Source of the DNA: Escherichia phage vB_EcoP-R1
Reading direction: 5' to 3' (one strand)
Sequence record: OQ703102.1
Length of the DNA stretch: 40,875 nt
The translations under genes were made by a program, and so were the position numbers. The notes under the pieces are model-generated. The model had not been told where the DNA came from and did not search any database. It saw only the letters and a program-made list of their open reading frames with translations. This document shows positions 1 through 39,681 of the stretch, in pieces. The stretch's first letter is position 1, and every line of letters starts with the position of its first letter.

Positions 1-394
1 GACGGGTCAGAATGTCGCGATACAGCGCCTGACGGTGCGTTTCGTCATGGGTCGCCAGCACTTCGCCGATCTCTTTATCAATCAGCGGCTTGTCGGCTAA
101 ACCTTGCTGTGCCTGGAAGTCAGCGTGCGACGGTACGCGCATTGAACTCAGGAAGGCGTGTGGATCGTATGGCGCGCCCCAGGTGCGGTGGAAAATCATG
201 CCAAAACGACCGTCGCGCTGACGAGCATAGATACTGCTCTCTTCTTCGCCAATCAGCGAGACATCTGCGCCAATCTGGCGCATATCAGCCTGAATGATTT
301 CCGCCATCGATTTGCTTAACGCATCGGTGCCGATGAACGACAGTTCAATGCGCAGCGGCTGACCATTTTTCTCGCGGATGTCTTTGCCAGCAGG
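1..394 (-). CDS. nikA: Internal fragment of a periplasmic solute-binding protein (SBP family 5, nickel-binding NikA-like); truncated by the window edge and by the junction with phage DNA
   Basis: Minus-strand frame open across 1-394, translating ...PAGKDIREKNGQPLRIELSFIGTDALSK...RDGRFGMIFHRTWGAPYDPHAFLSSMRVPSHADFQAQQGLADKPLIDKEIGEVLATHDETHRQALYRDILTR, which matches my recollection of E. coli NikA; GC-rich enterobacterial codon usage; no start or stop inside the window. The six-frame track misses it because it runs off the window. Confidence 0.55.
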
Positions 395-461
395 ATCCAT
401 ACGGATTGGGCGTACAGCAAGTAATAAACTTTATCTTTCAATTGAATAGGAGAATTATCAT

Positions 462-1511
462 ATGGCAAACGTTCCGGGTCAGAAATTAGGTACAGACCAA
501 GGTAAAGGCAAATCTGGTTCCGACGCTCTGGCGTTGTTCCTGAAGGTCTTTGCTGGCGAAGTCCTGACCGCATTCACTCGCCGCTCTGTAACTGCTGACA
601 AGCATATTGTCCGTACAATTCAGAACGGTAAGTCTGCTCAGTTCCCGGTCATGGGTCGCACCTCTGGTGTGTATCTGGCTCCGGGTGAGCGACTGTCCGA
701 TAAGCGCAAAGGTATCAAACATACCGAGAAAGTAATTACCATTGATGGTCTGCTGACTGCCGATGTGATGATTTTCGACATTGAAGACGCGATGAACCAC
801 TATGACGTGGCTGGTGAGTATTCCAACCAGTTGGGTGAAGCTCTGGCTATCGCTGCTGATGGTGCGGTTCTGGCTGAAACGGCTCTCCTGTGTAACCTCC
901 CAGCTGCATCCAACGAGAACATCGCGGGTCTGGGCACTGCGTCCGTACTGGAAGTTGGTAAGAAAGCTGACCTCAACACCCCGGCTAAACTGGGCGAAGC
1001 AATCATCGGTCAACTGACCATCGCTCGTGCGAAGCTGACCTCCAACTACGTTCCTGCTGGCGACCGTTATTTCTATACAACGCCGGACAACTACTCTGCA
1101 ATCCTCGCGGCTCTGATGCCGAACGCTGCTAACTATGCTGCGCTGATTGATCCAGAGACTGGTAACATCCGTAACGTGATGGGCTTCGTTGTTGTTGAAG
1201 TTCCGCATCTGGTACAGGGTGGCGCTGGTGAGACCCGTGGTGCCGATGGTATCTCTATCGCTTCCGGCCAGAAACACGCATTCCCAGCAACTGCTACTGG
1301 CGACGTTAAAGTTGCTATGGATAACGTTGTGGGTCTGTTCTCTCACCGTTCTGCTGTGGGTACTGTGAAGCTGCGTGACTTGGCGCTGGAACGTGACCGT
1401 GACGTCGATGCTCAGGGCGACCTGATTGTCGGTAAATACGCTATGGGTCACGGTGGTCTGCGTCCTGAAGCGGCGGGTGCGCTGGTTTTCACAGCAGCGT
1501 CAGCGGTCTAA
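462..1511 (+). CDS. 10A: Major capsid protein (T7 gp10A homolog)
   Basis: 349 aa; MANVPGQKLGTDQGKGK...LALFLKVFAGEVLTAF...KHTEKVITIDGLLTADV...DIEDAMNHYDV...KYAMGHGGLRPEAAG closely parallels T7 gp10A; RBS AGGAG 8-10 nt upstream. Confidence 0.95.
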   Translation: MANVPGQKLGTDQGKGKSGSDALALFLKVFAGEVLTAFTRRSVTADKHIVRTIQNGKSAQFPVMGRTSGVYLAPGERLSDKRKGIKHTEKVITIDGLLTADVMIFDIEDAMNHYDVAGEYSNQLGEALAIAADGAVLAETALLCNLPAASNENIAGLGTASVLEVGKKADLNTPAKLGEAIIGQLTIARAKLTSNYVPAGDRYFYTTPDNYSAILAALMPNAANYAALIDPETGNIRNVMGFVVVEVPHLVQGGAGETRGADGISIASGQKHAFPATATGDVKVAMDNVVGLFSHRSAVGTVKLRDLALERDRDVDAQGDLIVGKYAMGHGGLRPEAAGALVFTAASAV

Positions 1512-1774
1512 CGACCTTTAAGGCCCTCTCTACAGAGGGTCCTACCTTAGAGACGTACAGTTCTACGGTGGGGACCAGCCTGAAGGTTGACTTACCTGAG
1601 CTTTCAGACGTGACCGATTGGTCGCTGCTTGAGGTGACTACGCCTGATGGTGTTAGCTACTCCCGTAGAACCAACAGTCTCTACTTCAAGGCCACCTCTG
1701 GCGCGGAAGGTCTGGTGATTGTTGGATATGACGGTTCGCCTGTGCGTTCCTTCAACGTATCTTTCACAAACTAA
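462..1774 (+). CDS. 10B: Minor capsid protein 10B, predicted product of a programmed -1 ribosomal frameshift near the end of 10A
   Basis: Slippery heptamer G GTT TTC at 1484-1490, 20 nt before the 10A stop; the -1 frame is open from 1490 to a TAA at 1772-1774 (the track ORF 1568..1774 is part of this frame). Same arrangement as T7 10A/10B. Confidence 0.45.
1484..1490 (+). promoter_or_regulatory. Putative -1 frameshift slippery site GGTTTTC
   Basis: Heptamer identical to the T7 gene 10 frameshift site as I recall it; sits at the end of the capsid gene with an open -1 frame downstream. Confidence 0.45.
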
Positions 1775-1780
1775 TTGAAA

Positions 1781-1817
1781 CCCCTTGGGTGCCTTCGGGT
1801 GCTTGAGGGGTTTTTTG
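1781..1817 (+). terminator. Phage RNAP terminator (T-phi-like) after the capsid gene
   Basis: CCCCTTGGGTGCCTTCGGGTGCTTGAGGGG hairpin followed by TTTTTTG; position and sequence resemble T7 T-phi. Confidence 0.6.
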
Positions 1818-1933
1818 CTTAAAGTGAGGATGATTATGTTTTACTTACTTACAGCCTTGGGACTATTTGTTAGTTTCTGGGCGATTATATTATTAACCGG
1901 ACCATGCAGTCCTTACGACAGATAGGAGGGAGT

Positions 1934-2500
1934 ATGGCTCAATACATTCCACTGAATGCTAACGATGACTTAGACGCTATCAACGATATGTTAGCTGCTA
2001 TCGGTGAACCAGCAGTCCTACAGCTTGACGAGGGTAACGCTGACGTCTCTAACGCTCAACGTATCCTACATCGTGTCAATCGTCAGGTCCAAGCTAAAGG
2101 CTGGAACTTTAACATCAACGAAGCTGCTGTCCTGACACCTGATGTCCAAGACAATAGGATTCGATTCTTGCCGTCATACCTTCGTGTAATGACCGCTGGG
2201 GCCACCAGCTACTACAGCAACATGGGTGGATACCTGTACGACCTGTCCACTCAGTCGACCACTTTCACCGACCCTATCACGGTAGAGCTTGTGGAGATGA
2301 AGCCATTCTCAGAGATGCCTGTGGTCTTCAGGGACTACATCGTCACTAAAGCTAGCCGTGAGTTCAACGCTAAGTTCTTCGGTAGCCCAGAGTCTGAATT
2401 GTACCTTCGTGAGCAGGAAGCAGAACTCTATCAGCAGGTCATGGAATACGAGATGGATACTGGTCGCTACAACATGATGTCCGACATTGGGAGAGACTAA
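1934..2500 (+). CDS. 11: Tail tubular protein A (gp11 homolog)
   Basis: Start chosen at ATG 1934 behind GGAGGGAG (track ORF starts earlier at 1904); MAQYIPLNAND...AAIGEP...NAQRILHRVNRQVQAKGWNFNINE...VTKASREFNAKFFGSPE...MEYEMD parallels T7 gp11; position after capsid. Confidence 0.85.
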   Translation: MAQYIPLNANDDLDAINDMLAAIGEPAVLQLDEGNADVSNAQRILHRVNRQVQAKGWNFNINEAAVLTPDVQDNRIRFLPSYLRVMTAGATSYYSNMGGYLYDLSTQSTTFTDPITVELVEMKPFSEMPVVFRDYIVTKASREFNAKFFGSPESELYLREQEAELYQQVMEYEMDTGRYNMMSDIGRD

Positions 2501-4857
2501 TGCCACTAATTACTCAATCAATCAAGAACCTTAAGGGTGGCATTAGCCAACAGCCTGACATACTGAGGTTCTCAGACCAAGGCGAGTCACAGGTTAACTG
2601 CTGGTCATCAGAGAGTGATGGCCTCCAGAAGCGTCCACCTACAGTCTTCAAGCGACGTCTTAACATCGACGTTGGGAGCCACCCTAAGTTCCACCTGATT
2701 AACCGTGATGAGCAGGAGCAGTATTACATCGTGTTCAACGGGTCCAACATTCAGGTAGTTGACTTGAGCGGTAATCAATACTCAGTTTCCGGTGCGGTAG
2801 ACTACGTTAAGTCGCCCAACCCGCGAGATTACATCCGTGTCGTTACCGTTGCAGACTATACGTTCATCGTGAACCGTAAGGTTGTCGTTAAAGGTGGAAG
2901 CGAGACATCACACTCTGGTTATAATCGTAAAGCTCGTGCTTTAATTAACCTGCGTGGTGGACAGTATGGTCGCACCCTTAAGGTAGGAATCAACGGAGGA
3001 GTTAAGGTTGAGCATAAGTTGCCAGCAGGTAATGATGCCGAGAATGACCCTCCTAAGGTGGATGCTCAGGCCATCGGTGCAGCTCTGAGAGACCTTCTTG
3101 TTGCTGCTTACCCTACCTTCACGTTCGACCTTGGGTCTGGATTCCTGTTAATCACTGCCCCTTCAGGGACTGACATTAACTCAGTGGAGACGGAGGATGG
3201 CTACGCTAACCAGCTAATCAGTCCAGTACTCGACACGGTGCAAACAATCTCTAAGTTGCCTCTTGCGGCTCCAAATGGGTACATCATTAAGATTCAAGGG
3301 GAGACCAACAGTAGCGCCGATGAATATTACGTGATGTATGACTCCAACACTAAGACGTGGAAGGAGACAGTAGAGCCGGGAGTGGTCACTGGGTTTGATA
3401 ACACCACAATGCCTCATGCTCTGGTTAGACAATCTGACGGCTCCTTTGAGTTCAAGACTCTGGACTGGTCTAAGCGTGGTGCTGGTAATGATGACACAAA
3501 CCCTATGCCTAGCTTCGTGGATGCCACGATTAACGATGTGTTCTTCTACAGGAATAGGCTGGGGTTCTTGTCAGGCGAGAACGTGATCATGAGCCGTTCA
3601 GCAAGCTACTTTGCGTTCTTCCCTAAGAGTGTGGCGACACTGAGTGATGATGATCCTATTGACGTAGCTGTAAGTCACCCTAGAATCTCAATCCTTAAGT
3701 ATGCCGTTCCGTTTAGCGAGCAGCTACTACTTTGGTCGGATGAGGTTCAGTTCGTGATGACAAGCTCTGGGGTCCTTACCTCGAAGTCTATCCAGCTTGA
3801 TGTAGGCTCAGAGTTTGCCCTAGGTGACAATGCCAGACCGTTCGCTGTAGGACGCTCAGTCTTCTTCTCAGCTCCTCGTGGGTCATTCACCAGTATTAAG
3901 CGATACTTCGCTGTAGCTGATGTATCTGATGTGAAGGATGCAGATGATACAACAGGTCACGTACTGTCCTACATCCCTAACGGGGTGTTTGATATTCAAG
4001 GTACAGGTACTGAGAACTACATCTGCGTCAACTCTACAGGTGCATACAACCGAATCTACATCTACAAGTTCTTGTTTAAGGACGGAGTACAGCTTCAAGC
4101 CTCTTGGTCACACTGGGAGTTCCCTAAAGATGATAAGATTCTGGCGTCTGCTTCTATTGGCTCTACCATGTTCATCGTTCGTCAGCACCAAGGAGGGGTA
4201 GACATTGAGCACCTTAAGTTCATCAAGGAGGCAACTGACTTCCCCTCAGAGCCATATAGACTACACATTGACTCCAAGGTGTCTATGGTAATTCCAATTG
4301 GCTCATATAATGCTGACACCTATAAGACTACGGTTGACATTGGTGCTGCTTATGGTGGCAACGCTCCGTCTCCCGGTCGGTACTATCTGATTGACAGTCA
4401 GGGTGCTTATGTGGACCTTGGGGACTTGTCCAGTATCTCTACTGTGATTACCCTCAACGGCGATTGGTCAGGACGTACAGTGTTCATCGGACGGCCCTAT
4501 CTGATGTCCTACAAGTTCTCACGGTTCCTGATTAAGATTGAAGATGATAGTGGCACTCAGTCTGAAGACACTGGTCGTCTACAGCTTCGTCGGGCTTGGG
4601 TCAACTACAAGGACACTGGCGCTCTGAGACTCATTGTCAGAAACGGTGAGCGGGAGTTCGTGAATACCTTCAACGGGTACACCCTTGGTCAGCAAACCAT
4701 CGGTACTACAAACATTGGTGACGGGCAGTATCGATTCGCTATGAATGGTAACGCATTAACCACGAGTCTAACCTTAGAGTCCGACTATCCTACCCCAGTG
4801 TCCATCGTTGGGTGTGGCTGGGAGGCATCATACGCTAAGAAAGCTCGTTCAGTCTAA
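2500..4857 (+). CDS. 12: Tail tubular protein B (gp12 homolog)
   Basis: 785 aa (T7 gp12 is 794 aa); conserved position; start overlaps gene 11 stop (TAATG). Confidence 0.88.
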   Translation: MPLITQSIKNLKGGISQQPDILRFSDQGESQVNCWSSESDGLQKRPPTVFKRRLNIDVGSHPKFHLINRDEQEQYYIVFNGSNIQVVDLSGNQYSVSGAVDYVKSPNPRDYIRVVTVADYTFIVNRKVVVKGGSETSHSGYNRKARALINLRGGQYGRTLKVGINGGVKVEHKLPAGNDAENDPPKVDAQAIGAALRDLLVAAYPTFTFDLGSGFLLITAPSGTDINSVETEDGYANQLISPVLDTVQTISKLPLAAPNGYIIKIQGETNSSADEYYVMYDSNTKTWKETVEPGVVTGFDNTTMPHALVRQSDGSFEFKTLDWSKRGAGNDDTNPMPSFVDATINDVFFYRNRLGFLSGENVIMSRSASYFAFFPKSVATLSDDDPIDVAVSHPRISILKYAVPFSEQLLLWSDEVQFVMTSSGVLTSKSIQLDVGSEFALGDNARPFAVGRSVFFSAPRGSFTSIKRYFAVADVSDVKDADDTTGHVLSYIPNGVFDIQGTGTENYICVNSTGAYNRIYIYKFLFKDGVQLQASWSHWEFPKDDKILASASIGSTMFIVRQHQGGVDIEHLKFIKEATDFPSEPYRLHIDSKVSMVIPIGSYNADTYKTTVDIGAAYGGNAPSPGRYYLIDSQGAYVDLGDLSSISTVITLNGDWSGRTVFIGRPYLMSYKFSRFLIKIEDDSGTQSEDTGRLQLRRAWVNYKDTGALRLIVRNGEREFVNTFNGYTLGQQTIGTTNIGDGQYRFAMNGNALTTSLTLESDYPTPVSIVGCGWEASYAKKARSV

Positions 4858-4882
4858 CTTATTGAAGGGCCTATAGATTTAC

Positions 4883-4905
4883 CTTAACTATCACTATAGG
4901 GACTA
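4883..4905 (+). promoter_or_regulatory. Phage RNAP promoter (phi13-like)
   Basis: CCTTAACTATCACTATAGGGACT; predicted +1 G at 4900; same 23-bp family recurs 10 times in the window. Confidence 0.8.
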
Positions 4906-4933
4906 TAGGCCATTAAGGTTATAAGGAGACTTT

Positions 4934-11200: not shown

Positions 11201-12162
11201 TAGATGCTGGACGTCAAGGCTTCCTGTCTGACATCGTGGAGCATAGCCTGACTGGTAGTAAGCGTAAGTTCAATGACCGCTGGCTTAAGACCGCTGGTAT
11301 CTCTGACGAGCAGTGGAAGGGCATTAAGTCCCTCATCCGTGAGTCAGTGACTCGTGGTCCAGACGGGAAGTACACCATCAAGGATAAGAAGGCGTTCAGT
11401 CAGGACCCAAGGGCTATGGACCTATGGCGTATGGGTGACACCATCGCTGACGAGACGTTACTCCGGCCTCATAAGCTGTCAAACATGGACGCCAAGGCTT
11501 ACGGTCCTCTCGCTAAGACTGTCCTTCAGTTTAAGAACTTCGTCATCAAGTCCATCAATGGACGTACCATGCGAACCTTCTATAACGCCACGAAGAACAA
11601 CCGAGCGATGGACGCTGCACTGTCTACTGTGATGTCTATGGGTCTGGCTGGTATCTACTACATTGCTCAGGCGCACGTCAAGGCTTACGCTATGCAGGAC
11701 GGTCGAGACCGAGATTATCTCAAGCAAGCTCTGGACCCAACGATGATTGGCTATGCGGCCCTGTCCCGTAGTTCACATCTGGGTGGCCCATTTGGTGTCG
11801 CTAACATTCTAGGTGGCATCGCTGGGTATGAGGACACTAAGATGCTCCGTTCGTCTATCCTCCCGCGTTCACCTACAGAGAAACCCGAACGTGCCATCTC
11901 ATATGGTGCGGCTACAAGTGACCCTGTGATGAATGTCGTTGGCAACTTCTTGGAGCAGGTCCCGGCTTTCGGCTATGCTGCTAACGTTGGCGCTTCGGCA
12001 TACAACTTGGCTGGCTACCTCAAGGCTGATACTCGTGTCAACGAGCGTGACTACATGACCGGGATGTATAATACGTTCCGTGAACTGGTTCCGAACGACC
12101 CGATTACTCAGAAGTTGCTACTGGGAACGTTTGAGGAGCAAGGTATCCACATCAAGGACTAA
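8275..12162 (+). CDS. 16: Internal virion protein D (gp16 homolog) with a divergent N-terminal domain
   Basis: About 1295 aa from ATG 8275 (RBS AAGGAG at 8262; track start 8257 is a TTG). Central and C-terminal regions parallel T7 gp16 (e.g. GPATRLEARETARN, SPTGMQSGASGK, GTYVPHVY, KAYGISH, NSFLEARNLFDSD, RVNGDIAIM, RSPFTKVLNGTTNYLLDA, VPNDPITQKLL). Confidence 0.85.
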   Translation: MATRGIRNNNPGNIRVSKDQWEGMTGDDGAFVTFDSPESGVRALGKNLLSYGRRGYDSIEKIINRWAPPNENDTKAYIDSVVAATGIPATQSLDLSNPDTLSALAQAISFHETGSRYDPEVYQKGVARALNGISPKTPPVSANVFDALTEGLKAKPKVALGENLPTAAGLNIEGQAPEAPNESFGEMFYKSTGETMQEREDRSTWFGFGAATEAEVKNSMVGVAIRAGQTEDSLDVIGDVFNPTRWNNHKWTREELDQIRNAGVLPQYYGVITGGSPQNLTELINLALENQKLDQEKAKAGTGAQLAAGVIGAGVDPLTYVPIAGQVGKGGKLVNKMFTVAAQSGALAGVSEMARTSVAGGDAHVAEAILGGALFGGGMTAIADGLGRALGRNTNEFAGPATRLEARETARNVDGQDLSRLPIQEGEPTFSHQGVKFADVPNEPGSVRLEDGSILIGENPLNPKTRQVFDEVIEPERAAAGVNLGGLTEIGLKLLRSENPEIRGVAADLVRSPTGMQSGASGKIGTTASDVFERLRAVDHRFYNDIDDAVTEALKDPYFQTAFWRDSGAFRQDIYQRVSMAIEDGSGNLKAELTPGELKVYDLLKNQFDAKREMMENPAMFGRPDAQSIFPGSRFKGTYVPHVYSNQMKELYIKELGSPEALQEAIKKSWLTSYASRPEVKKRVDEALLEADPTLTPEGLAAAVDKYANDKAYGISHTEQFERSSVMEENINGLVGLENNSFLEARNLFDSDMSIVLPNGQTFSVNNLREWDMDKIVPAYNRRVNGDIAIMAGTGKTTKDMKDLVETMMNKAGDDGKLKGEVSTLRDTLKILTGRARRDGADDAAFATVMRTMTDLSFFAKNAYMGVQNLTEIGGMLARGNVRAMLHGVPIFRDLAFRNKKVGASEIKDLHNVIFGKELDDSIRPSKQDVIDRLRSYSDLGRGAATALGTAKYYTGELAVRSPFTKVLNGTTNYLLDAGRQGFLSDIVEHSLTGSKRKFNDRWLKTAGISDEQWKGIKSLIRESVTRGPDGKYTIKDKKAFSQDPRAMDLWRMGDTIADETLLRPHKLSNMDAKAYGPLAKTVLQFKNFVIKSINGRTMRTFYNATKNNRAMDAALSTVMSMGLAGIYYIAQAHVKAYAMQDGRDRDYLKQALDPTMIGYAALSRSSHLGGPFGVANILGGIAGYEDTKMLRSSILPRSPTEKPERAISYGAATSDPVMNVVGNFLEQVPAFGYAANVGASAYNLAGYLKADTRVNERDYMTGMYNTFRELVPNDPITQKLLLGTFEEQGIHIKD

Positions 12163-12180
12163 ACTATCACTATAGGAAAC
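12158..12180 (+). promoter_or_regulatory. Phage RNAP promoter (phi17-like)
   Basis: ACTAAACTATCACTATAGGAAAC overlapping the gene 16 stop; +1 G at 12175. Confidence 0.8.
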
Positions 12181-12226
12181 GGGAGGCGCTACCATAGGTC
12201 TCCGTTTAAATAACAAAGGAGGCATA

Positions 12227-14758
12227 ATGTCCACGATTACACAATTCCCTTCAGGAAACACTCAGTACAGGATTGAGTTCGACTACCTAGCCAGAACGTT
12301 TGTTGTTGTTACGCTGGTGAATAGCTCTAACCCTACCCTGAACCGTGTACTGGAAGTTGGTCGAGATTACCGATTCCTTAACCCAACGATGATTGAGATG
12401 TTGGTTGACCAATCAGGTTTCGACATCGTTCGTATTCACCGTCAGACTGGAACTGACTTAGTGGTAGACTTCAGGAATGGCTCAGTGTTGACAGCTAGTG
12501 ACCTGACCAATTCAGAGCTTCAGGCTATCCATATTGCAGAAGAAGGTCGAGACCAAACGGTTGACTTAGCGAAGGAATATGCCGATGCTGCTGGTAGCTC
12601 TGCTGGCAACGCTAAGGATAGCGAGGACGAAGCACGCCGAATCGCTGCGAGTATCAGGGAAGCTGGTCTAATTGGCTATATTACCCGTCGCTCCTTCGAG
12701 AAAGGCTACAACGTTACAACATGGAGCGAGGTCCTGCTATGGGAAGAGGATGGTGATTATTACCGCTGGGATGGTACGCTTCCAAAGAACGTTCCTGCTG
12801 GTTCAACTCCTGAAACTTCCGGTGGGATTGGATTAGGTTCGTGGGTTAGTGTTGGTGATGCTGCTTTAAGAAGTCAGATTTCAAACCCGGAAGGGGCAAT
12901 ACTCTACCCGGAATTGCAGATGGCAAGATGGCGTGATGATGGTGATGTTCGAGGCTGGGGTGCTAAAGGGGATGGTGTAACAGATAGTACGGAGAATATA
13001 GCTGCTTCACTAAATTCTCAAAAAGCTGTCGTAGCATCAGAAGGTGTATTCTCTAGTTCTGGTATTAATAGTAATTACTGTAACTTAGACGGCAGAGGCA
13101 GTGGTGTACTAAGTCACCGTTCCAGTACAGGTAACTACTTAGTATTTAACAATCCACGTACAGGTCGCTTAAGTAATATTACGGTAGAAAGTAATAAGGC
13201 GACGGATACCACTCAGGGACAGCAGGTATCTCTTGCTGGTGGCAGTGATGTTACGGTAAGTGACGTTAACTTCTCAAACGTTAAAGGTACTGGTTTCAGT
13301 TTAATCGCATACCCTAATGATGCGCCACCTGATGGGCTTATGATTAAAGGCATTCGAGGTAGCTATTCCGGCTATGCCACTAATAAGGCGGCTGGATGCG
13401 TACTTGCTGACTCCTCAGTTAACTCCCTCATAGATAACGTCATTGCTAAGAACTACCCTCAGTTCGGAGCTGTAGAGCTGAAAGGTACAGCCAGTTACAA
13501 CATAGTTAGTAATGTTATAGGGACAGATTGCCAGCATGTAACCTACAACGGTACTGAAGGGTCAATAGCTCCTTCTAATAACCTTATCAAGGGGGTAGTT
13601 GCTAATAATCCTAAGTATGCAGCGGTTGTTGCAGGCAAAGGTAGTACGAACTTAATATCAGACGTGCTCGTAGATTACTCAACCTCTGATGCTAGGCAGG
13701 CTCATGGTGCTACAGTAGAAGGTTCTGATAACGTCATAAATAATGTGCTTATGACAGGGTGTGATGGTACTAACTCTTTAGGGCAAGCTCAAACTGCTAC
13801 AATTGCTCGCTTTATAGATACAGCTAATAACAACTATGCGTCTGTATTTCCTAGCTACAGTGCTACAGGTGTTATTACTTTCGAATCAGGTTCTACCCGT
13901 AACTTCGTAGAGGTAAAGCATCCGGGAAGGAGAAACGACCTTCTCAGTGCTACTGGTACTATTAGCGGTGCAGATACTATTGACGGCACTAATAATAGCA
14001 ACGTAGTGCACGCCCCTGCATTAGGGCAGTACATAGGCAGTATGTCCGGTAGGTTCGAATGGCGGATTAAGTCCATGTCACTTCCATCAGGGGTTCTTAC
14101 CTCTGCGGATAAGTACAGGATGCTTGCCGATGAGGCTGTGTCATTAGCTGTAGGCGGAGGTACTTCTTCTCAAGTACGCCTGTTCACTTCTGACGGCACT
14201 TATCGGAATATATCACTTACTAGGGGTAACGTGCGTCTTCCTACCAGTAGCACAGGTTATTTGCAGTTAGGTTCTAATGCAATGACACCAGATAGTACTA
14301 ATACATACGCATTAGGTTCCGCAAGTCGAGCATGGTCTGGCGGTTTTACTCAATCAGCATTCACTGTTGTCTCAGATGCTAGGGATAAAACAGAGCCTCT
14401 TAATATCTCAGATGCTTTACTGGATGCTTGGTCTGAAGTTGACTTTGTGCAGTTTCAGTACTTGGACCGAATTGAGGAGAAGGGTGCAGACTCAGCTAGA
14501 TGGCACTTCGGCATCATCGCTCAGCGAGCTAAGGAGGCCTTCGAACGTCACGGTATAGATGCACATCGCTATGGCTTCCTGTGCTTCGACAGTTGGGATG
14601 ATGTATACGAGGAAGATGCCAATGGCTCTCGTAAACTGATTACACCAGCAGGTTCCCGCTACGGTATTCGTTACGAGGAAGTACTGATATTAGAGGCTGC
14701 GTTGATGCGGCGTACTATTAAGCGTATGCAGGAAGCATTAGCTGTTATGTCTAAGTGA
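12227..14758 (+). CDS. 17: Tailspike/tail fiber: T7 gp17-like N-terminal adaptor, pectate-lyase-type beta-helix (putative polysaccharide depolymerase), C-terminal intramolecular chaperone (peptidase S74-like)
   Basis: 843 aa. N-terminal about 150 aa resembles the gp17 tail-attachment domain; GAKGDGVTD motif at aa 245-253 (nt 12959-12985) is the hallmark of pectate-lyase-3 type tailspikes; C-terminal about 128 aa (from SDARDK at nt 14372; ...WHFGIIAQRAKEAF...) resembles the auto-cleaved chaperone domain of endosialidase-type tailspikes. Confidence 0.85.
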   Translation: MSTITQFPSGNTQYRIEFDYLARTFVVVTLVNSSNPTLNRVLEVGRDYRFLNPTMIEMLVDQSGFDIVRIHRQTGTDLVVDFRNGSVLTASDLTNSELQAIHIAEEGRDQTVDLAKEYADAAGSSAGNAKDSEDEARRIAASIREAGLIGYITRRSFEKGYNVTTWSEVLLWEEDGDYYRWDGTLPKNVPAGSTPETSGGIGLGSWVSVGDAALRSQISNPEGAILYPELQMARWRDDGDVRGWGAKGDGVTDSTENIAASLNSQKAVVASEGVFSSSGINSNYCNLDGRGSGVLSHRSSTGNYLVFNNPRTGRLSNITVESNKATDTTQGQQVSLAGGSDVTVSDVNFSNVKGTGFSLIAYPNDAPPDGLMIKGIRGSYSGYATNKAAGCVLADSSVNSLIDNVIAKNYPQFGAVELKGTASYNIVSNVIGTDCQHVTYNGTEGSIAPSNNLIKGVVANNPKYAAVVAGKGSTNLISDVLVDYSTSDARQAHGATVEGSDNVINNVLMTGCDGTNSLGQAQTATIARFIDTANNNYASVFPSYSATGVITFESGSTRNFVEVKHPGRRNDLLSATGTISGADTIDGTNNSNVVHAPALGQYIGSMSGRFEWRIKSMSLPSGVLTSADKYRMLADEAVSLAVGGGTSSQVRLFTSDGTYRNISLTRGNVRLPTSSTGYLQLGSNAMTPDSTNTYALGSASRAWSGGFTQSAFTVVSDARDKTEPLNISDALLDAWSEVDFVQFQYLDRIEEKGADSARWHFGIIAQRAKEAFERHGIDAHRYGFLCFDSWDDVYEEDANGSRKLITPAGSRYGIRYEEVLILEAALMRRTIKRMQEALAVMSK

Positions 14759-15317: not shown

Positions 15318-15321
15318 GTGT

Positions 15322-15366
15322 TAGACTCAAGGTCATTACTATGTGTAGTGGCCTTTATGGTTAACA
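15322..15366 (+). promoter_or_regulatory. RNase III-type processing hairpin (R18.5-like)
   Basis: TTAGACTCAAGGTCAT...GTGGCCTTTATGGTTAA; one of three near-identical copies (also 24159 and 31550); resembles the conserved GTGGCCTTTATGATT element of T7 RNase III sites. Confidence 0.5.
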
Positions 15367-15418
15367 CTAACTAGTGGAGGAGACTCTACGTGAAATCTGA
15401 TAAACCGGGAGGGCAACT

Positions 15419-15894: not shown

Positions 15895-17661
15895 ATGTCT
15901 AAGAAAACACCTGTCGAAAGACAGGCAGAAATGACCCAAAGGATGAGGGACGACTTCGTGTTCTTCATCTTCGTTCTCTGGAAAGCTCTTAGCCTTCCGG
16001 CTCCAACCCGCTGCCAGATAGATATGTGTAAGAAGCTGGCTGCTGGGGATAATCGCCGCTTCATCCTTCAGGCGTTCCGTGGTATTGGCAAGTCGTTTCT
16101 GACCTGTGGTTTCGTGGTCTGGAAACTATGGAACAACCCAGACTTAAAGTTCATGATTGTGTCGGCCTCAAAGGAACGAGCCGATGCTAACTCCATCTTC
16201 ATCAAGCGAATAATCGACCTCATGCCTCAGCTTAAGGAACTCAAACCTAAGCAGGGGCAGCGAGATGCGGTTATCAGCTTCGACGTTGGACCAGCCAAGC
16301 CAGACCACTCACCTTCGGTTAAGTCCGTTGGTATCACTGGTCAGTTGACTGGTAGTCGTGCTGACATCCTGATTGCCGATGACGTGGAGGTTCCGAACAA
16401 CTCAGCGACTCAGTCTGCACGAGACCGTCTGTCAGAGCTTGTGAAAGAGTTCGACGCTATCCTGAAGCCGGGAGGTACAATCATCTATCTGGGTACTCCT
16501 CAGAACGAGATGACCTTGTATCGTGAGCTGGAAGGCCGTGGGTACACCACTACCATCTGGCCTGCTCGTTATCCACGCGACAGGAAGGACTGGCAGTCTT
16601 ACGGCGACCGTCTGGCACCGATGCTTCAGGCAGAGCTGGAAGAGGACCCTGAGTCCTTCTACTGGCGTCCGACCGATGAAGTACGATTCGATGATACGGA
16701 CCTGAAGGAACGTGAGCTGTCCTATGGTAAAGCTGGCTTCGCTCTACAGTTCATGCTTAACCCTAACCTGAGTGATGCTGAGAAGTACCCTCTGAAGCTC
16801 CGTGACCTTATCGTAGCCGACTTGGACCCAGCGTCTAGCCCAATGGTATACCAATGGCTTCCTAACCCTCAGAACAAGCGTGAGGACGTTCCTAACGTTG
16901 GACTCATGGGTGACTCATACCACACGTATCAGACTGTAGGTTCTGCCTTCAGTTCGTACACCCAGAAGATTCTAGTCATTGACCCTAGTGGTCGTGGTAA
17001 GGATGAAACTGGTTATGCGGTACTGTACCAGCTAAACGGCTACATCTTCGCTATGGAAGTTGGCGGTATGCGAGGTGGCTATGAAGACTCTACGCTGGAA
17101 GCCTTGGCTAAGATTGGTCGTAAGTGGAAGGTCAACGAATACGTCATTGAGGGTAACTTCGGTGATGGTATGTACCTTGAGCTATTCAAGCCTGTAGCTT
17201 CCCGTATCCATCCTGCGGCTGTAACTGAAGTGAAGAGTAAGGGTCAGAAGGAACTCCGCATCTGTGACGTTCTGGAGCCTATCATGGGGTCTCACCGACT
17301 TATCGTTAACGCTGCTGCTATCGTCCAAGACTACCAGTCTGCCTCTGATAAGGATGGTGTTCGTAATCCTATCTACTCTCTCTTCTACCAGATGACACGT
17401 ATCTCTCGTGAACGTGGAGCATTGGCACACGATGACCGACTTGATGCGCTGGCTATCGGTGTACAGTTCTTCGTTGAGTCTATGGCTAAGGATGCCAACA
17501 AAGGCGAACGTGAAGTCACTGAGGAGTGGCTGGAGGAACAGATGGAGAACCCACGGAAAGGCTTCGAGTCCATCCACACTGAGTTCTGGGACAATGGGGT
17601 CCGGGTAACTCACGATACGGACGACGAGCTTGGACTAGGGTCCTACGTTACGTTCCACTAG
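15895..17661 (+). CDS. 19: Terminase large subunit (gp19 homolog)
   Basis: 588 aa (T7 gp19 586 aa); conserved position; RBS GGAGGGA. Confidence 0.93.
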
Positions 17662-17755
17662 CTGAATGAATAACTATGGGTGAAAACTGAATTAATAAGC
17701 AGTTAGTAACCTATAGTTACTACCAGTCTAACCTACTGTTTTATAAGGAGTTTGG

Positions 17756-17778
17756 ACTTAACTATCACTATAGGGAAG
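17756..17778 (+). promoter_or_regulatory. Phage RNAP promoter (phiOR-like, near the right genome end)
   Basis: GACTTAACTATCACTATAGGGAA; +1 G at 17773. Confidence 0.8.
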
Positions 17779-17958
17779 ACCCCCGGTTACTTATAGTATT
17801 ACTGTAGTGAATATACATATGCAGACTTTATGCAAGACCTTAGGAGGCAGACTCCGAGTTCTTACCTAAGGCTTGCACCGATGGAAGGAGGGTGATATTA
17901 ATCATAATCCCTCCAATACAGATAGTCACCGACCATAGATACAGGAGGTATGTAGCAT

Positions 17959-18117
17959 ATGGCAAAGACCAAAGCTGTACTTAAAGCTCTGGCGACCAAT
18001 CGAGCTACATACAGGTTTCTTGCTGCTGTTCTACTTGCTGCTGGCGTTACTGCTGGAAGTAAGTGGGTCGGGTGGGTCGAGACTCTCGTATGTTCTCTGG
18101 TGTCTCAGTGTAATTAA
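17959..18117 (+). CDS. Small hydrophobic protein (gp19.5 position)
   Basis: 52 aa MAKTKAVLKALATNRATYRFLAAVLLAAGVTAGSKWVGWVETLVCSLVSQCN with RBS AGGAGGT 8 nt upstream; below the track size cutoff. Confidence 0.4.
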   Translation: MAKTKAVLKALATNRATYRFLAAVLLAAGVTAGSKWVGWVETLVCSLVSQCN

Positions 18118-18150
18118 CGCAATCATGGTAACGATTCATGAGCGGAAGAC

Positions 18151-18193
18151 CTAAGGTCAGTACGTGGATAAAGACTCACTCTACTGACCTTAG
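18151..18193 (+). repeat. Perfect 12-bp inverted repeat (CTAAGGTCAGTA / TACTGACCTTAG) forming a hairpin in the right-end unique region
   Basis: Read directly from the sequence; arms separated by 19 nt. Confidence 0.6.
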
Positions 18194-18355
18194 CTACTGT
18201 AGTCAAGGACTTTAGGTAACACCTTAATAGAAGCTCACCTAGGGTCATCCTACTTATTGGTCTATCCTAGTGTCGCCTGACCTACGGTCCTTGACCTACA
18301 GTAGCTGCCACCTACGGTCACTCGATGAGTTTTGGACCAAAAGTTTGAGACCACA

Positions 18356-18550
18356 TCTCACAGTTCAAGAACCTCAAGTCTCCCCATAGGCCCTCTTTCA
18401 GTCCAGACCAAAGGCCCTACCCCAGTCTATCATAAGGTTAGACCGATGGTCAAGACGTTAGGTCAACGATAGGTCTAGGCTATGGCTTAGGGAAGGACGA
18501 TAGGTAGGGACTATGGGTCTGTCTCTGAGTCTCTATCTGTATAGTGATAT
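18356..18550 (+). repeat. Genome terminal repeat region (single copy at the joined right-end/left-end junction)
   Basis: TCTCACAGTTCAAGAACCTCAAGTCTCCCCATAGG... closely resembles the first bases of the T7 left end (TCTCACAGTGTACGGACCTAAAGT...); the stretch ...GTCTCTGAGTCTCTATCTGT near 18520-18540 resembles the end of the T7 terminal repeat. Boundaries approximate. Confidence 0.5.
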
Positions 18551-18571
18551 AGTATAACATTACGTCCTACA

Positions 18572-18660
18572 CCTACAGTCTGACTAACCTACAGTCTGAC
18601 TAACCTACAGTATCAACCATAAGACACCAACACCTACAGTCAAAGACCTACAGCTAATAG
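18572..18660 (+). repeat. Short direct repeats built on CCTACAG (including a 16-bp tandem CCTACAGTCTGACTAA x2)
   Basis: Read directly; analogous in position to the CCTAAAG-type repeats next to the T7 terminal repeat. Confidence 0.6.
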
Positions 18661-18767
18661 ACACAAAGCTATAGACTTAAGGTCAGAGACATGTTAGTCA
18701 AAGACTATATCCTATTACTCACCATGGGGCCGACGATAGCTCAATCAATATTATTTAAGATTACCTA

Positions 18768-18796
18768 TTGACTACAGGTCCAGACTATGGCTTAAT
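18768..18796 (+). promoter_or_regulatory. Host sigma70-type early promoter (A1-like)
   Basis: TTGACT - 17 bp - CTTAAT with AT-rich upstream element; resembles T7 A1 (TTGACT...GATACT). Confidence 0.45.
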
Positions 18797-18908
18797 AGCT
18801 TCCGTCAACACGACACGGCAACAACCGGATAGTGAAGACGCCGGGTCATCCCGGTTAAGTAGACAGCCTGATAAGTCATACGAACAACAGGCAGATGACA
18901 GAAAGTAG

Positions 18909-18938
18909 TTGACAAGATGTACCGACTTAAAGTAGTAT
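18909..18938 (+). promoter_or_regulatory. Host sigma70-type early promoter (A3-like)
   Basis: GTTGACAAGATGTACCGACTTAAAGTAGTATGTACCACATCAAC resembles T7 A3; -35 TTGACA, -10 TAGTAT with 18-bp spacer. Confidence 0.5.
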
Positions 18939-19060
18939 GTACCACATCAACACGAAACAACGGTGACGACCAACACTGAAATGGTCTACCTGAAGTCCTC
19001 TGACTGAAGGGAATGCTCTTTAACAATCTGGATAAACTCTTAATGTGCGCCGATAGCGAC

Positions 19061-19115
19061 TAACTACAGGGTCTTTGAGTCTACATTTGAAGGCCCTGAC
19101 TGATAGTCACTAACT
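19061..19115 (+). repeat. Early-leader element copy 1 (R0.3-like), direct repeat of 19382-19430
   Basis: ...CTAACTACAGGGTC...CCTGACTGATAGTCACTAAC; the 20-nt core CCTGACTGATAGTCACTAAC is identical in both copies and resembles the T7 gene 0.3 leader. Confidence 0.5.
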
Positions 19116-19121
19116 TAACGG

Positions 19122-19376
19122 ATGGACACTATGAAACACTTAAGCACAATCACTAATCACAATGAAGTATTCGTGAACACTAAAGGTTATGCGTGGATTC
19201 AGCTTAAAGAGATGACAGGAGCGCGTCACCGTGTGGTAGTGCGCAGGGTATCAAGCAAGCCGTTCAGCAACTACAGTATAGACACTGTGCGTATAGACAA
19301 CGATACCTACCTGATAGACTCACAGATAACCGTGAGTCCTACAGCGAGCGCCTCAGCTCCTTATTTCGCTAACTGA
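19122..19376 (+). CDS. Hypothetical early protein upstream of ocr
   Basis: 84 aa ORF (alternative start ATG 19131); bracketed by two copies of the leader repeat; no recognisable motif. Confidence 0.5.
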   Translation: MDTMKHLSTITNHNEVFVNTKGYAWIQLKEMTGARHRVVVRRVSSKPFSNYSIDTVRIDNDTYLIDSQITVSPTASASAPYFAN

Positions 19377-19381
19377 GAGTG

Positions 19382-19430
19382 ATTAACTACAGGTCGTTAG
19401 ACTCATAGCGGCCTGACTGATAGTCACTAA
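19382..19430 (+). repeat. Early-leader element copy 2, immediately upstream of ocr
   Basis: Direct repeat of 19061-19115. Confidence 0.5.
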
Positions 19431-19463
19431 CATACATATAAACAACTTTGAGAGGATATAACT

Positions 19464-20818: not shown

Positions 20819-20841
20819 ACTTAACTATCACTATAGGACTC
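20819..20841 (+). promoter_or_regulatory. Phage RNAP promoter immediately upstream of the RNAP gene
   Basis: GACTTAACTATCACTATAGGACT; +1 G at 20836; followed by tandem repeats CAAGTGAAAGAC (20857 and 20881). Confidence 0.75.
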
Positions 20842-24138: not shown

Positions 24139-24161
24139 CCTAAACTATCACTATAGGATTA
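24139..24161 (+). promoter_or_regulatory. Phage RNAP promoter (phi1.1-like)
   Basis: ACCTAAACTATCACTATAGGATT; +1 G at 24156. Confidence 0.8.
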
Positions 24162-24206
24162 GACTCAAGGTCATGACTCAAAGTCGTGGCCTTCATGATT
24201 AACCCT
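24159..24206 (+). promoter_or_regulatory. RNase III-type processing hairpin (R1.1-like)
   Basis: TTAGACTCAAGGTCATGACTCAAAGTCGTGGCCTTCATGATTAACC; near-identical to the copies at 15322 and 31550. Confidence 0.5.
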
Positions 24207-24231
24207 AACTCATTCAATCAGGAGCTACACC

Positions 24232-25809: not shown

Positions 25810-25832
25810 CCTAAGCTATCACTATAGGACAA
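25810..25832 (+). promoter_or_regulatory. Phage RNAP promoter (phi1.5/1.6-like)
   Basis: CCTAAGCTATCACTATAGGACAA; +1 G at 25827. Confidence 0.75.
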
Positions 25833-36443: not shown

Positions 36444-36466
36444 ACTAAACTATCACTATAGGGACT
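36444..36466 (+). promoter_or_regulatory. Phage RNAP promoter (phi6.5-like)
   Basis: CACTAAACTATCACTATAGGGAC; +1 G at 36461; followed by an inverted-repeat leader (GACTTTAGGACC...GACTTTAGTC). Confidence 0.8.
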
Positions 36467-38102: not shown

Positions 38103-39663
38103 ACGTGAAGGATTTGCCGCTGAAGGCGCGAAGTCAGTTTATGATAGGCTGAAGAACGGACGACAACCTTACGAGACCAGAGCACAGAACTGCGCTGCCG
38201 TGACCATACCGTCGCTATTTCCGAAGGAATCTGATAACTCCTCGACGGAATATTCAACTCCGTGGCAAGCTGTAGGTGCTCGCTGTTTGAACAACTTGGC
38301 TGCAAAGCTGATGTTGGCATTATTCCCTCAGTCACCGTGGATGCGACTGACAGTCTCCGAATATGAGGCCAAGACCTTGAGTCAGGACTCAGAGGCTGCT
38401 GCTCGTGTTGACGAAGGGCTGGCTATGGTCGAGCGTGTGTTGATGGCCTACATGGAGACCAACAGTTTCCGTGTGCCATTGTTCGAAGCTCTGAAGCAGC
38501 TTATCGTCTCCGGTAACTGTCTGCTTTACATTCCAGAGCCTGAACAGGGTACTTACAGTCCTATGCGAATGTACCGCTTAGTGTCATACGTTGTTCAACG
38601 TGATGCTTTCGGTAATATCTTGCAGATTGTGACTCTCGACAAGGTAGCGTTTAGTGCTCTACCGGAAGACGTGAAGTCACAACTCAACGCAGACGACTAT
38701 GAGCCTGACACAGAGCTGGAAGTTTATACGCACATCTACCGTCAAGACGACGAGTATCTACGTTATGAGGAAGTGGAAGGCATTGAGGTAGCAGGGACCG
38801 ATGGTTCCTACCCACTGACTGCATGTCCATACATCCCGGTACGAATGGTTCGACTGGATGGTGAAGACTATGGTCGTTCTTACTGCGAGGAGTATCTGGG
38901 TGACCTGAACTCGCTGGAGACGATTACAGAAGCTATCACCAAAATGGCTAAGGTAGCCTCCAAGGTGGTGGGCCTCGTTAACCCGAACGGTATCACGCAA
39001 CCTCGTCGGCTGAACAAGGCGGCTACAGGTGAGTTCGTTGCCGGTCGCGTTGAGGACATCAACTTCCTGCAACTGACTAAGGGTCAGGACTTTACGATTG
39101 CCAAGTCGGTGGCTGACGCTATCGAGCAACGTTTAGGCTGGGCCTTCCTTCTTAATAGTGCTGTTCAGCGCAACGCCGAGCGAGTCACTGCTGAAGAGAT
39201 TCGTTATGTTGCTGGCGAACTGGAGGCGACCTTAGGTGGCGTGTACTCAGTACAATCCCAAGAGCTTCAGTTACCTATCGTCCGTGTGCTGATGAACCAA
39301 CTTCAGTCTGCTGGCATGATTCCTGACCTTCCGAAAGAAGCGGTAGAGCCTACTGTCTCCACTGGTCTGGAAGCGTTAGGTCGTGGTCAGGACTTGGAGA
39401 AGCTAACTCAGGCGGTTAACATGATGACTGGTCTTCAGCCGCTATCTCAGGACCCGGACATCAACTTGCCGACCCTTAAGCTACGACTCCTGAACGCTCT
39501 GGGTATCGACACCGCCGGCCTTCTGCTGACTCAGGACGAGAAGATGCAACGTATTGCTGAACAATCCGCTCAAGGAGCTGTGGTCAACGGTGCGTCTGCT
39601 GCTGGTGCTAACATGGGTGCTGCTGTAGGTCAGGGAGCTGGTGAGGACATGGCTCAAGCCTAA
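38095..39663 (+). CDS. 8: Portal / head-to-tail connector protein (gp8 homolog)
   Basis: 522 aa (T7 gp8 536 aa); conserved position between 7.7 and scaffold. Confidence 0.93.
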   Translation: MAEREGFAAEGAKSVYDRLKNGRQPYETRAQNCAAVTIPSLFPKESDNSSTEYSTPWQAVGARCLNNLAAKLMLALFPQSPWMRLTVSEYEAKTLSQDSEAAARVDEGLAMVERVLMAYMETNSFRVPLFEALKQLIVSGNCLLYIPEPEQGTYSPMRMYRLVSYVVQRDAFGNILQIVTLDKVAFSALPEDVKSQLNADDYEPDTELEVYTHIYRQDDEYLRYEEVEGIEVAGTDGSYPLTACPYIPVRMVRLDGEDYGRSYCEEYLGDLNSLETITEAITKMAKVASKVVGLVNPNGITQPRRLNKAATGEFVAGRVEDINFLQLTKGQDFTIAKSVADAIEQRLGWAFLLNSAVQRNAERVTAEEIRYVAGELEATLGGVYSVQSQELQLPIVRVLMNQLQSAGMIPDLPKEAVEPTVSTGLEALGRGQDLEKLTQAVNMMTGLQPLSQDPDINLPTLKLRLLNALGIDTAGLLLTQDEKMQRIAEQSAQGAVVNGASAAGANMGAAVGQGAGEDMAQA

Positions 39664-39681
39664 ACTATCACTATAGGAACT
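39659..39681 (+). promoter_or_regulatory. Phage RNAP promoter (phi9-like)
   Basis: CCTAAACTATCACTATAGGAACT overlapping the portal stop; +1 G at 39676. Confidence 0.8.

Follow-up and report, generated by a model that had tools for sequence, protein, structure and literature searches.

The genome of Escherichia phage vB_EcoP-R1 (sequence record OQ703102.1; 40,875 nucleotides, the whole of which was analysed and is called the window below) carries a long open reading frame at the position occupied in T7 by gene 17. The locus raises the question of what kind of receptor-binding protein is encoded there, and which structure on the host surface it recognizes. The frame (12227..14758, plus strand) is intact, begins with ATG and specifies 843 amino acids followed by a stop codon, with a predicted precursor mass of 90.5 kDa. 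A preliminary description, made from the sequence alone, had proposed a tailspike with a pectate-lyase-type depolymerase domain and a self-cleaving C-terminal chaperone. The frame, the two motifs quoted in that description and Ser716 (codon at nt 14372) were all located where it had placed them.

We consider it very probable that the gene encodes the sole receptor-binding tailspike of a K1F-like podovirus of the T7 family (Kayfunavirus) and that its specificity module is a KflA-type K5 lyase; no observation made in the analysis spoke against this. The protein is already known, in that the enzyme family has been described, a structure has been solved and the self-cleaving chaperone has been characterised. 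The preliminary description did not recognise it as a known and structurally solved protein.

The tailspike gene and its surroundings

The gene order in this part of the window is T7-like, with the tube (gp11) and nozzle (gp12) genes and gp13-16 followed by the spike, holin, gp18, Rz and terminase genes. A ribosome-binding site, AAGGAGG, can be read from the sequence at 12216..12222 (+), four bases upstream of the ATG. Further upstream, the segment 12159..12180 (+), which reads CTAAACTATCACTATAGG, matches the 18-nucleotide consensus CTWAACTATCACTATAGG, and this consensus is also found at eight other intergenic sites of the window. By analogy with the phi17 promoter of T7, we infer that 12159..12180 acts as a phage-RNA-polymerase promoter for the spike gene. 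The segment overlaps the stop codon of gene 16, and the predicted +1 nucleotide is the G at 12175. Sigma-70 promoter-like and terminator-like sites near the spike gene occur at or below chance level. A candidate hairpin in the 5' UTR (12177-12207) was dropped because its stability is not above that of shuffled sequence (z = -1.2).

A chance reading frame can be ruled out, since the protein contains three Pfam domains that score past their curated thresholds, matches PDB entry 9vvr over its full length and has counterparts in 15 phage records. In these records the full-length gene is present at 95.8-98.9% nucleotide identity, and at least 15 deposited Kayfunavirus genomes carry near-identical genes. 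The window contains no other spike-like frame, and a second, docked tailspike of the kind present in K1-5 or KP32 was therefore rejected. The G+C content is 43-45% in the lyase module, compared with 51-54% in the flanking genes 16 and 19.

The N-terminal region and the mosaic joints

The first 150 amino acids (12227..12676, +) comprise a T7 gp17-type adaptor followed by a helical linker, as the preliminary description had recognized. Pfam family PF03906 (Phage_T7_tail) matches aa 10-115 (57.2 bits, cut-off 25.2, E = 2e-15), and the N-terminal gp17 chains of PDB tail complexes of T7 (7boz, 8dsp, 8e4g) match aa 6-116. Both the N-terminal position of the PF03906 match and the gene 17 position within the T7-like structural module identify the adaptor. 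Similarity to T7 gp17 is confined to aa 6-116, and the protein lacks a T7-type receptor-binding tip, the remainder consisting of lyase and chaperone.

The region between aa 150 and the C-terminal domain had been assigned to a beta-helix enzyme module. The match to KflA begins only at aa 242, and aa 156-211 (12692..12859, +) form a separate, intermediate domain that had been missed. This segment belongs to PF18668 (Tail_spike_N; the type found in CBA120 TSP1 and G7C gp66; 66.1 bits, cut-off 25, E = 2.9e-18). Chains of CBA120 TSP1, TSP3 and TSP4 (4oj5, 5w6f, 5w6h) match aa 151-224, and the domain is also found in the spikes of K1F, LM33_P1 and UE-S5b.

The linker that follows (aa 212-253; 12860..12985, +) lies between two recombination joints and ends in the motif GAKGDGVTD (aa 245-253, nt 12959-12985). 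One joint is placed within the codons of this motif. The sia (endosialidase) gene of K1F is 96.4% identical in DNA sequence over gene nt 1-759, at which point the similarity ends, while the kflA gene of K5A is 93.0% identical over gene nt 754-2518, with similarity beginning at nt 754. The other joint is marked by LM33_P1, for which similarity ends at gene nt 635, and by UE-S5b, for which it begins at nt 615. Judged from these alignments, the tailspike gene is a two-parent chimera of a K1F-type N-terminus and a K5A-type cassette of lyase, stalk and chaperone.

GAKGDGVTD had previously been taken as the signature of pectate-lyase-3 tailspikes, a reading that does not hold. The K1F endosialidase, which is a beta-propeller by Pfam, carries the identical motif, so the motif is not diagnostic of pectate-lyase-3 proteins. 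The corresponding family, PF12708 (Pectate_lyase_3), matches aa 241-366 of the spike with 15.6 bits against a gathering threshold of 27, no single stretch passes, and the protein falls outside the family. The score of the K1F endosialidase is also sub-threshold (18.2 bits) and comes from the motif region alone (aa 244-263). It is conceivable, though unlikely, that the GAKGDGVTD codons act as a reusable crossover site at which unrelated catalytic folds, beta-propeller sialidase and beta-helix lyase, are swapped on the same K1F-type adaptor.

The probable K5 lyase module and the C-terminal chaperone

Homology to KflA identifies aa 254-715 (12986..14371, +) as a K5 (heparosan) lyase module consisting of a beta-helix catalytic domain and a trimeric stalk. 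The KflA crystal structure (2x3h; K5 heparosan lyase from coliphage K5A) matches aa 242-716 with E = 1.8e-281, which agrees with the earlier proposal that a beta-helix polysaccharide-degrading enzyme replaces the T7 fibre tip. Over aa 254-715 the amino acid identity to KflA is 93.5%, and phrog_14895 gives an end-to-end match covering aa 209-843 (1294 bits). The homology runs across both the catalytic beta-helix and the stalk, as is required of a member of the KflA family. The fold of 2x3h is a right-handed single-stranded parallel beta-helix that is followed by an intertwined trimeric stalk (PMC8822698). The right-handed parallel beta-helix is a fold class common to the spike and pectate lyases (PMC8822698), despite the failed PF12708 threshold.

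Modelling of the complete protein with single-sequence AlphaFold2 gave no usable fold (mean pLDDT 32, pTM 0.24), and statements about the fold therefore rest on homologous solved structures. At 94-99% identity, these structures settle the fold by homology. No match to the spike protein was obtained in a search of NCBIfam. Likewise, the lyase cassette has no match in 5,426 complete E. coli genomes by megablast and hence no close prophage copy among them, at a sensitivity that a distant chromosomal lyase such as ElmA would fall below.

The catalytic residues of KflA, reportedly assigned by Thompson et al. in 2010, are Glu206, Lys208 and Tyr229, which we take to correspond, with an offset of +211, to Glu417 (13475-13477), Lys419 (13481-13483) and Tyr440 (13544-13546) of the spike. 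These candidate catalytic residues (13475..13546, +), located through the KflA alignment, are invariant across all five aligned K5 lyases. The spike would be expected to cleave K5 heparosan by beta-elimination, and the E. coli K5 capsule is the predicted host receptor. The capsule-specific host range proposed in the preliminary description can in this way be narrowed to a predicted specificity for the K5 heparosan capsule. This capsule occurs on uropathogenic E. coli and on the probiotic strain Nissle 1917.

The module might instead be a beta-helix depolymerase of other specificity or chemistry, such as a hydrolase or a pectate-lyase-3 enzyme directed against another capsule or an O-antigen, if the 30 substitutions that separate it from KflA within aa 254-715 had retargeted it. 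The weak PF12708 match at aa 241-366 could be read in this sense, and the host records of related phages give only 'Escherichia coli'. However, the substitutions lie mostly at the N-terminal edge of the module and within the stalk region (aa 575-715), the candidate catalytic residues are invariant, and the PF12708 score is below the cut-off and similar to that of the K1F sialidase. Moreover, new chemistry is hardly to be expected at 93.5% identity to a K5 lyase that has been characterised by experiment, and we regard such retargeting as very unlikely. A module that has lost catalysis and now mainly binds heparosan-like glycans is suggested by the example of phage ES17, which binds heparan sulfate proteoglycans and whose tail fibre has been modelled as similar to the binding domain of K5 lyase (PMC7885116). 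The ES17 protein is just distantly similar to KflA (E = 4e-12 in structural-analysis similarity; PMC7885116), whereas the spike of the window is 93.5% identical and retains the candidate catalytic residues. Capsule degradation is also needed by a capsule-specific podovirus for access to the cell surface, and a purely binding role is extremely improbable.

An active K5 lyase might in addition have a second ligand. According to work as cited in PMC7885116, KflA-type lyases recognise bacterial heparosan and also the unsulfated GlcA-GlcNAc domains present in heparan sulfate from mammals. On this basis the spike might also anchor the phage on proteoglycans of the gut mucosa and so keep it in the vicinity of K5-encapsulated E. 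coli, in the way suggested for ES17, although we consider this unlikely.

The last 128 residues (aa 716-843; 14372..14755, +; 14.8 kDa) form an intramolecular chaperone of the Peptidase_S74 autocleavage type, and the proposal of a self-cleaving-type chaperone beginning at Ser716 is borne out by several matches. Pfam PF13884 (Peptidase_S74) matches aa 716-776 (52.7 bits, cut-off 22, E = 5e-14), and PDB entry 3gud matches aa 716-834 (E = 1.6e-23), with further matches to 3gw6, 6eu4, 7y5s and 4uw8. Residue 716 is the serine of SDARDK, and WHFGIIAQRAKEAF begins at aa 759. The putative nucleophile Ser716 (14372-14374, +) and general base Lys721 (14387-14389, +) align without gaps to Ser911 and Lys916 of endoNF and form a Ser-x4-Lys dyad of the same spacing. 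In endoNF this dyad is indispensable (PMC8326128). The T5 protein pb1 uses the same autocleavage mechanism with Ser1264/Lys1269, and phages K5 and K1-5 have been named as presumed users (PMC4690869). The cleavage residues are invariant in the five aligned K5 lyases, and the domain is 95.3% identical to that of KflA over aa 716-843 and 95-100% identical to those of other K5 lyases.

Autocleavage of this type also involves an arginine of the neighbouring chain that senses correct folding of the triple-beta-helix (Arg897 in endoNF, Arg1250 in T5 pb1). The candidate sensor in the spike, Arg701, is invariant in K5 lyases. It lies 15 residues ahead of Ser716, not 14, so that the gapless alignment with endoNF shows it shifted by one position relative to Arg897.

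We infer that aa 716-843 are released autoproteolytically after trimerisation. That the domain instead stays uncleaved and serves the mature virion as a distal receptor-binding tip could be read from 9vvr, whose entry gives all 843 residues in its listed sequence, modelled or not. Against retention, Ser716 and Lys721 are both preserved and coincide with the endoNF dyad in the alignment, and the KflA crystal chain (2x3h) terminates exactly at the equivalent of Ser716. The near-identity of the domain to those of other K5 lyases points the same way. In addition, a published table gives 67 kDa for the K5 lyase of K1-5 and 52 kDa for its mature form (PMC5380687), a difference consistent with removal of a domain of some 15 kDa. 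We judge a retained tip to be highly improbable.

Taken with homologous systems, release of the chaperone suggests how the spike would be assembled and used. The C-terminal 128 residues would drive assembly of the trimer and the folding of its intertwined stalk, and the Ser716/Lys721 dyad would cut the Val715-Ser716 bond as soon as a correct trimer has formed. Cleavage would free the 14.8-kDa fragment and leave a kinetically stable mature spike of aa 1-715 (75.7 kDa). As expected from homology, six such trimers would be attached to the tail by their gp17-type N-terminus (aa 1-150), with Tail_spike_N (aa 156-211) and a short linker connecting this adaptor to the lyase module. The phage would then tunnel through the capsule and reach the outer membrane.

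Relation to known tailspikes

The closest solved structure is PDB 9vvr ('Tail spike protein', 843 aa, 18 chains), which has the same architecture and is identical at 832 of 843 residues (~98.7%, E = 0). The two amount to one protein found in sister phages. The 11 differences, given as the residue in the window, its position and the residue in 9vvr, are A141E, S205A, D238E, A366V, E444K, A495V, A527T, N589D, E636G, R666S and D747G. Glu417, Lys419, Tyr440, Arg701, Ser716 and Lys721 are all spared. A literature search found no publication on 9vvr. At the DNA level, the tailspike gene of Kayfunavirus IME177 is 98.9% identical. Phage SHAK7854 is a closely related phage.

The practical value of the analysis is limited. 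A predicted K5 receptor is useful for host-range prediction and when phages or enzymes are to be selected for therapy or for the processing of heparosan. The sole modest addition is the precise mosaic map, in which a K1F-type adaptor meets a K5A-type lyase cassette inside a conserved motif of nine codons. This map illustrates how capsule specificity moves among T7-like, SP6-like and N4-like podoviruses.

KflA of coliphage K5A (GenBank Y10025) and gp46 of K1-5 (632 aa) have the cassette of lyase beta-helix, stalk and chaperone in common with the spike, and their substrate and autocleavage site are probably the same. Both belong to SP6-like phages (Zindervirus/Vectrevirus), and their N-terminus is only about 40 amino acids long, without a gp17-type adaptor. 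In K1-5 and K1E the spikes are attached to the virion via a separate adaptor protein (PMC5380687). In the window, by contrast, a gp17 adaptor and a Tail_spike_N domain (253 aa) are built into the spike, and the phage has no other spike.

The reverse relationship is seen with endoNF (gp17) of coliphage K1F, the type species of Kayfunavirus. Its N-terminal 253 amino acids, including Phage_T7_tail, Tail_spike_N and GAKGDGVTD, are essentially the same as those of the window spike, and its C-terminal Peptidase_S74 chaperone is homologous (31% identity). However, the catalytic part of endoNF is a beta-propeller sialidase, into which a beta-barrel is inserted, together with a separate stalk (PF12217, PF12195, PF12219). 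This part is specific for the K1 polysialic acid capsule, and the window spike has the beta-helix lyase for K5 in its place. The K5 lyase of UE-S5b, an N4-like phage (Gamaleyavirus, Schitoviridae), is 93.4% identical in DNA sequence from gene nt 615 to the end. It has the linker and GAKGDGVTD segment in common with the window spike, and its chaperone domain is 100% identical. Its N-terminal 150 amino acids show no relationship to those of the window spike and fit an N4-like virion, and an endosialidase gene lies adjacent.

The tailspike gene and the domains of its product

An intact open reading frame with an ATG start at 12227-14758 on the plus strand encodes a tailspike of 843 amino acids, and a strong ribosome-binding site (AAGGAGG) is located four bases 5' of the start codon. 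On the same strand, the translation contains the motif GAKGDGVTD at residues 245-253 (12959-12985), the motif WHFGIIAQRAKEAF starting at residue 759, and a serine at residue 716 in the context VVSDARDK, whose codon starts at nucleotide 14372. The preliminary description had placed the reading frame, both motifs and Ser716 exactly there. A hairpin in the 5' UTR of the gene was not significant.

A search of solved structures aligned the spike from end to end with 9vvr_A, a "Tail spike protein" of 843 amino acids, with only 11 substitutions. Residues 242-716 match 2x3h, the K5 (heparosan) lyase KflA of coliphage K5A (E = 1.8e-281), which agrees with the beta-helix enzyme module proposed earlier. 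KflA is a trimeric beta-helical protein in which a triple-stranded beta-helix follows a central helix (PMC8822698). Pfam domains were found at residues 10-115 (Phage_T7_tail, E = 2e-15), 156-211 (Tail_spike_N, PF18668, E = 2.9e-18) and 716-776 (Peptidase_S74, "chaperone of endosialidase", E = 5e-14). The first of these, together with matches to the N-terminal chains of T7 gp17 in the tail complexes 7boz, 8dsp and 8e4g, bears out the suggested gp17-type adaptor, which, by analogy with those chains, would anchor trimers on the tail. In PHROGs, residues 209-843 match from end to end a tail-spike family of 632 residues, the length of KflA. NCBIfam returned no match to the spike, and an AlphaFold2 model built from the sequence on its own could not be used (pLDDT 32).

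This protein is already known, as are its fold, enzymology and maturation, and a near-identical full-length structure has been deposited. Our finding is a correct annotation rather than a discovery, and its sole small addition is an exact recombination map.

Mosaic origin of the gene

The preliminary description had taken GAKGDGVTD as a signature of pectate-lyase-3 tailspikes. The motif is not diagnostic of a beta-helix lyase, because the K1F endosialidase (sia) carries it unchanged at the same position (residues 245-253), with a similarly weak match to the pectate-lyase-like family PF12708 (18.2 bits, residues 244-263), and the catalytic part of that enzyme is a beta-propeller sialidase (End_N_terminal, End_beta_propel, End_beta_barrel and End_tail_spike in Pfam). 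The PF12708 match of the spike itself is below threshold (15.6 bits, cut-off 27). The conclusion holds on the strength of the near-identity to KflA and could not have been reached from the motif by itself. GAKGDGVTD is a shared joint or cap sequence that behaves as a module-swap joint and not as a fold marker.

Pairwise blastn of the spike gene against the genes of five relatives (nucleotides counted from the ATG) showed that nucleotides 1-759 are 96.4% identical to the K1F endosialidase gene and 1-635 are 96.9% identical to the LM33_P1 fibre gene. The remaining matches are to K5A kflA (754-2518, 93.0%), K1-5 gene 46 (754-2530, 92.5%) and the "K5 lyase" of the N4-like Gamaleyavirus UE-S5b (615-2532, 93.4%). 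These boundaries, with K1F extending to nucleotide 759 and K5A starting at 754, indicate that the gene is a clean two-parent recombinant of K1F-like and K5A-like halves. The crossover is confined to a six-base stretch (754-759) of the GAKGDGVTD codons, and a second commonly used joint is located at 615-635, in the WVSVGDA segment. The G+C content is 43-45% across the lyase module (12800-14300 of the window) compared with 51-54% in the flanking genes 16 and 19, which fits an imported cassette from another phage lineage.

At the protein level, the spike and KflA share 93.5% identity over residues 254-715 and 95.3% over 716-843, and the chaperone domain is 100% identical to that of UE-S5b. One and the same cassette of lyase, stalk and chaperone is thus carried by virions of three kinds, namely T7/K1F-like, SP6-like and N4-like.

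Predicted catalysis and maturation

Residues of KflA correspond to those of the spike with an offset of +211. The catalytic residues of KflA are reportedly Glu206, Lys208 and Tyr229, an assignment attributed to Thompson et al. in 2010, and we take their counterparts Glu417, Lys419 and Tyr440 to be the candidate catalytic residues of the spike. All three are invariant in an alignment of five K5 lyases. Degradation of the K5 capsule by beta-elimination would serve as an adsorption and penetration step. A changed specificity or chemistry of the lyase module is unlikely given the 93.5% identity to KflA and the conservation of these candidates. A role in binding only, like that proposed for the heparan-sulfate-binding tail fibre of phage ES17 (PMC7885116), is also unlikely because the ES17 protein bears no more than a distant similarity to KflA.

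A self-cleaving type of C-terminal domain starting at Ser716 had also been proposed, and is supported by the Peptidase_S74 match and by a gapless BLASTP alignment that places Ser716 on Ser911 and Lys721 on Lys916 of endoNF, the K1F endosialidase. Neither endoNF nor MyRF can undergo autocleavage without this Ser-Lys dyad (PMC8326128). The dyad is equally indispensable in T5 pb1, where it is Ser1264/Lys1269 and the bond between Thr1263 and Ser1264 is cut; the study of T5 names phages K5 and K1-5 as presumed users of the mechanism (PMC4690869). Arg701, a candidate folding-sensor arginine, is conserved, yet in the alignment it is shifted by one position relative to endoNF Arg897. The 2x3h chain ends exactly at the equivalent of Ser716, and the 67-kDa K1-5 lyase is listed with a mature form of 52 kDa (PMC5380687); on this basis, a 90.5-kDa precursor is predicted to mature into a spike of 75.7 kDa, with release of the chaperone as a 14.8-kDa fragment. 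Virions are unlikely to retain the C-terminal domain, since the dyad is intact and homologues are processed.

Genome context and related phages

The spike gene is carried by at least 15 phage genomes. It shares 98.9% DNA identity with that of Enterobacteria phage IME177, a Kayfunavirus, and 95.8-98.3% with 12 further full-length matches, of which the classified ones are Kayfunavirus. The rest of the window (17700-40875) is 96% identical to IME177 over 93% of its length. Together these relationships place the phage in the T7 family, among its K1F-like members. Several deposited Kayfunavirus genomes (MZ398247.1, MZ234011.1 and others) have a near-identical gene annotated only as "hypothetical protein", though it encodes a K5 lyase tailspike. 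A megablast search of complete E. coli genomes detected no copy of the lyase cassette at its level of sensitivity.

The window as a whole has the appearance of a complete Kayfunavirus genome in circularly permuted form. Its large reading frames are all on the plus strand in T7 order, from structural genes (the first, putative, at 462) to the end of the terminase at 17661, with early genes later. The neighbours of the spike gene also keep the T7 order, with tube gp11, nozzle gp12 and gp13-16 before it and a class II holin, gp18, Rz and the large terminase after it, and the window contains no other spike-like gene. The approximately 1.8 kb at 17662-19463, which lacks any reading frame of at least 100 amino acids, presumably holds the ends of the genome together with the early region. 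The window yielded no tRNA genes.

Nine copies of a consensus resembling a phage RNA polymerase promoter, CTWAACTATCACTATAGG, are present, all on the plus strand (4885-4909, 12159-12176, 17757-17774, 20820-20837, 24140-24157, 25811-25828, 36445-36462 and 39660-39677). The core ACTATAGG occurs twice in tandem at 4893-4909 (ACTATAGGGACTATAGG), and the copy at 12159-12176 is directly upstream of the spike gene, overlapping the gene 16 stop codon. A 52-nucleotide direct repeat (83% identical) is intergenic at both 15321-15372, between gene 18 and Rz, and 24159-24210, just past the promoter at about 24150. Each copy folds into a long stem-loop interrupted by an internal loop (-23.4 and -20.2 kcal/mol, z = -2.8 and -3.2, respectively), in which the upper stem varies in sequence while pairing is kept. 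These predicted hairpins appear similar to the sites of RNase III processing in T7, of which R18.5 is one.

In the 1-4918 locus of UE-S5b (PP301341.1), the K5 lyase gene directly follows an endosialidase gene, and the C-terminal 640 residues of its lyase are 93-100% identical to the spike described here. This dual arrangement of K1 and K5 spikes parallels the one in K1-5, which is SP6-like, and here occurs on a third type of virion.
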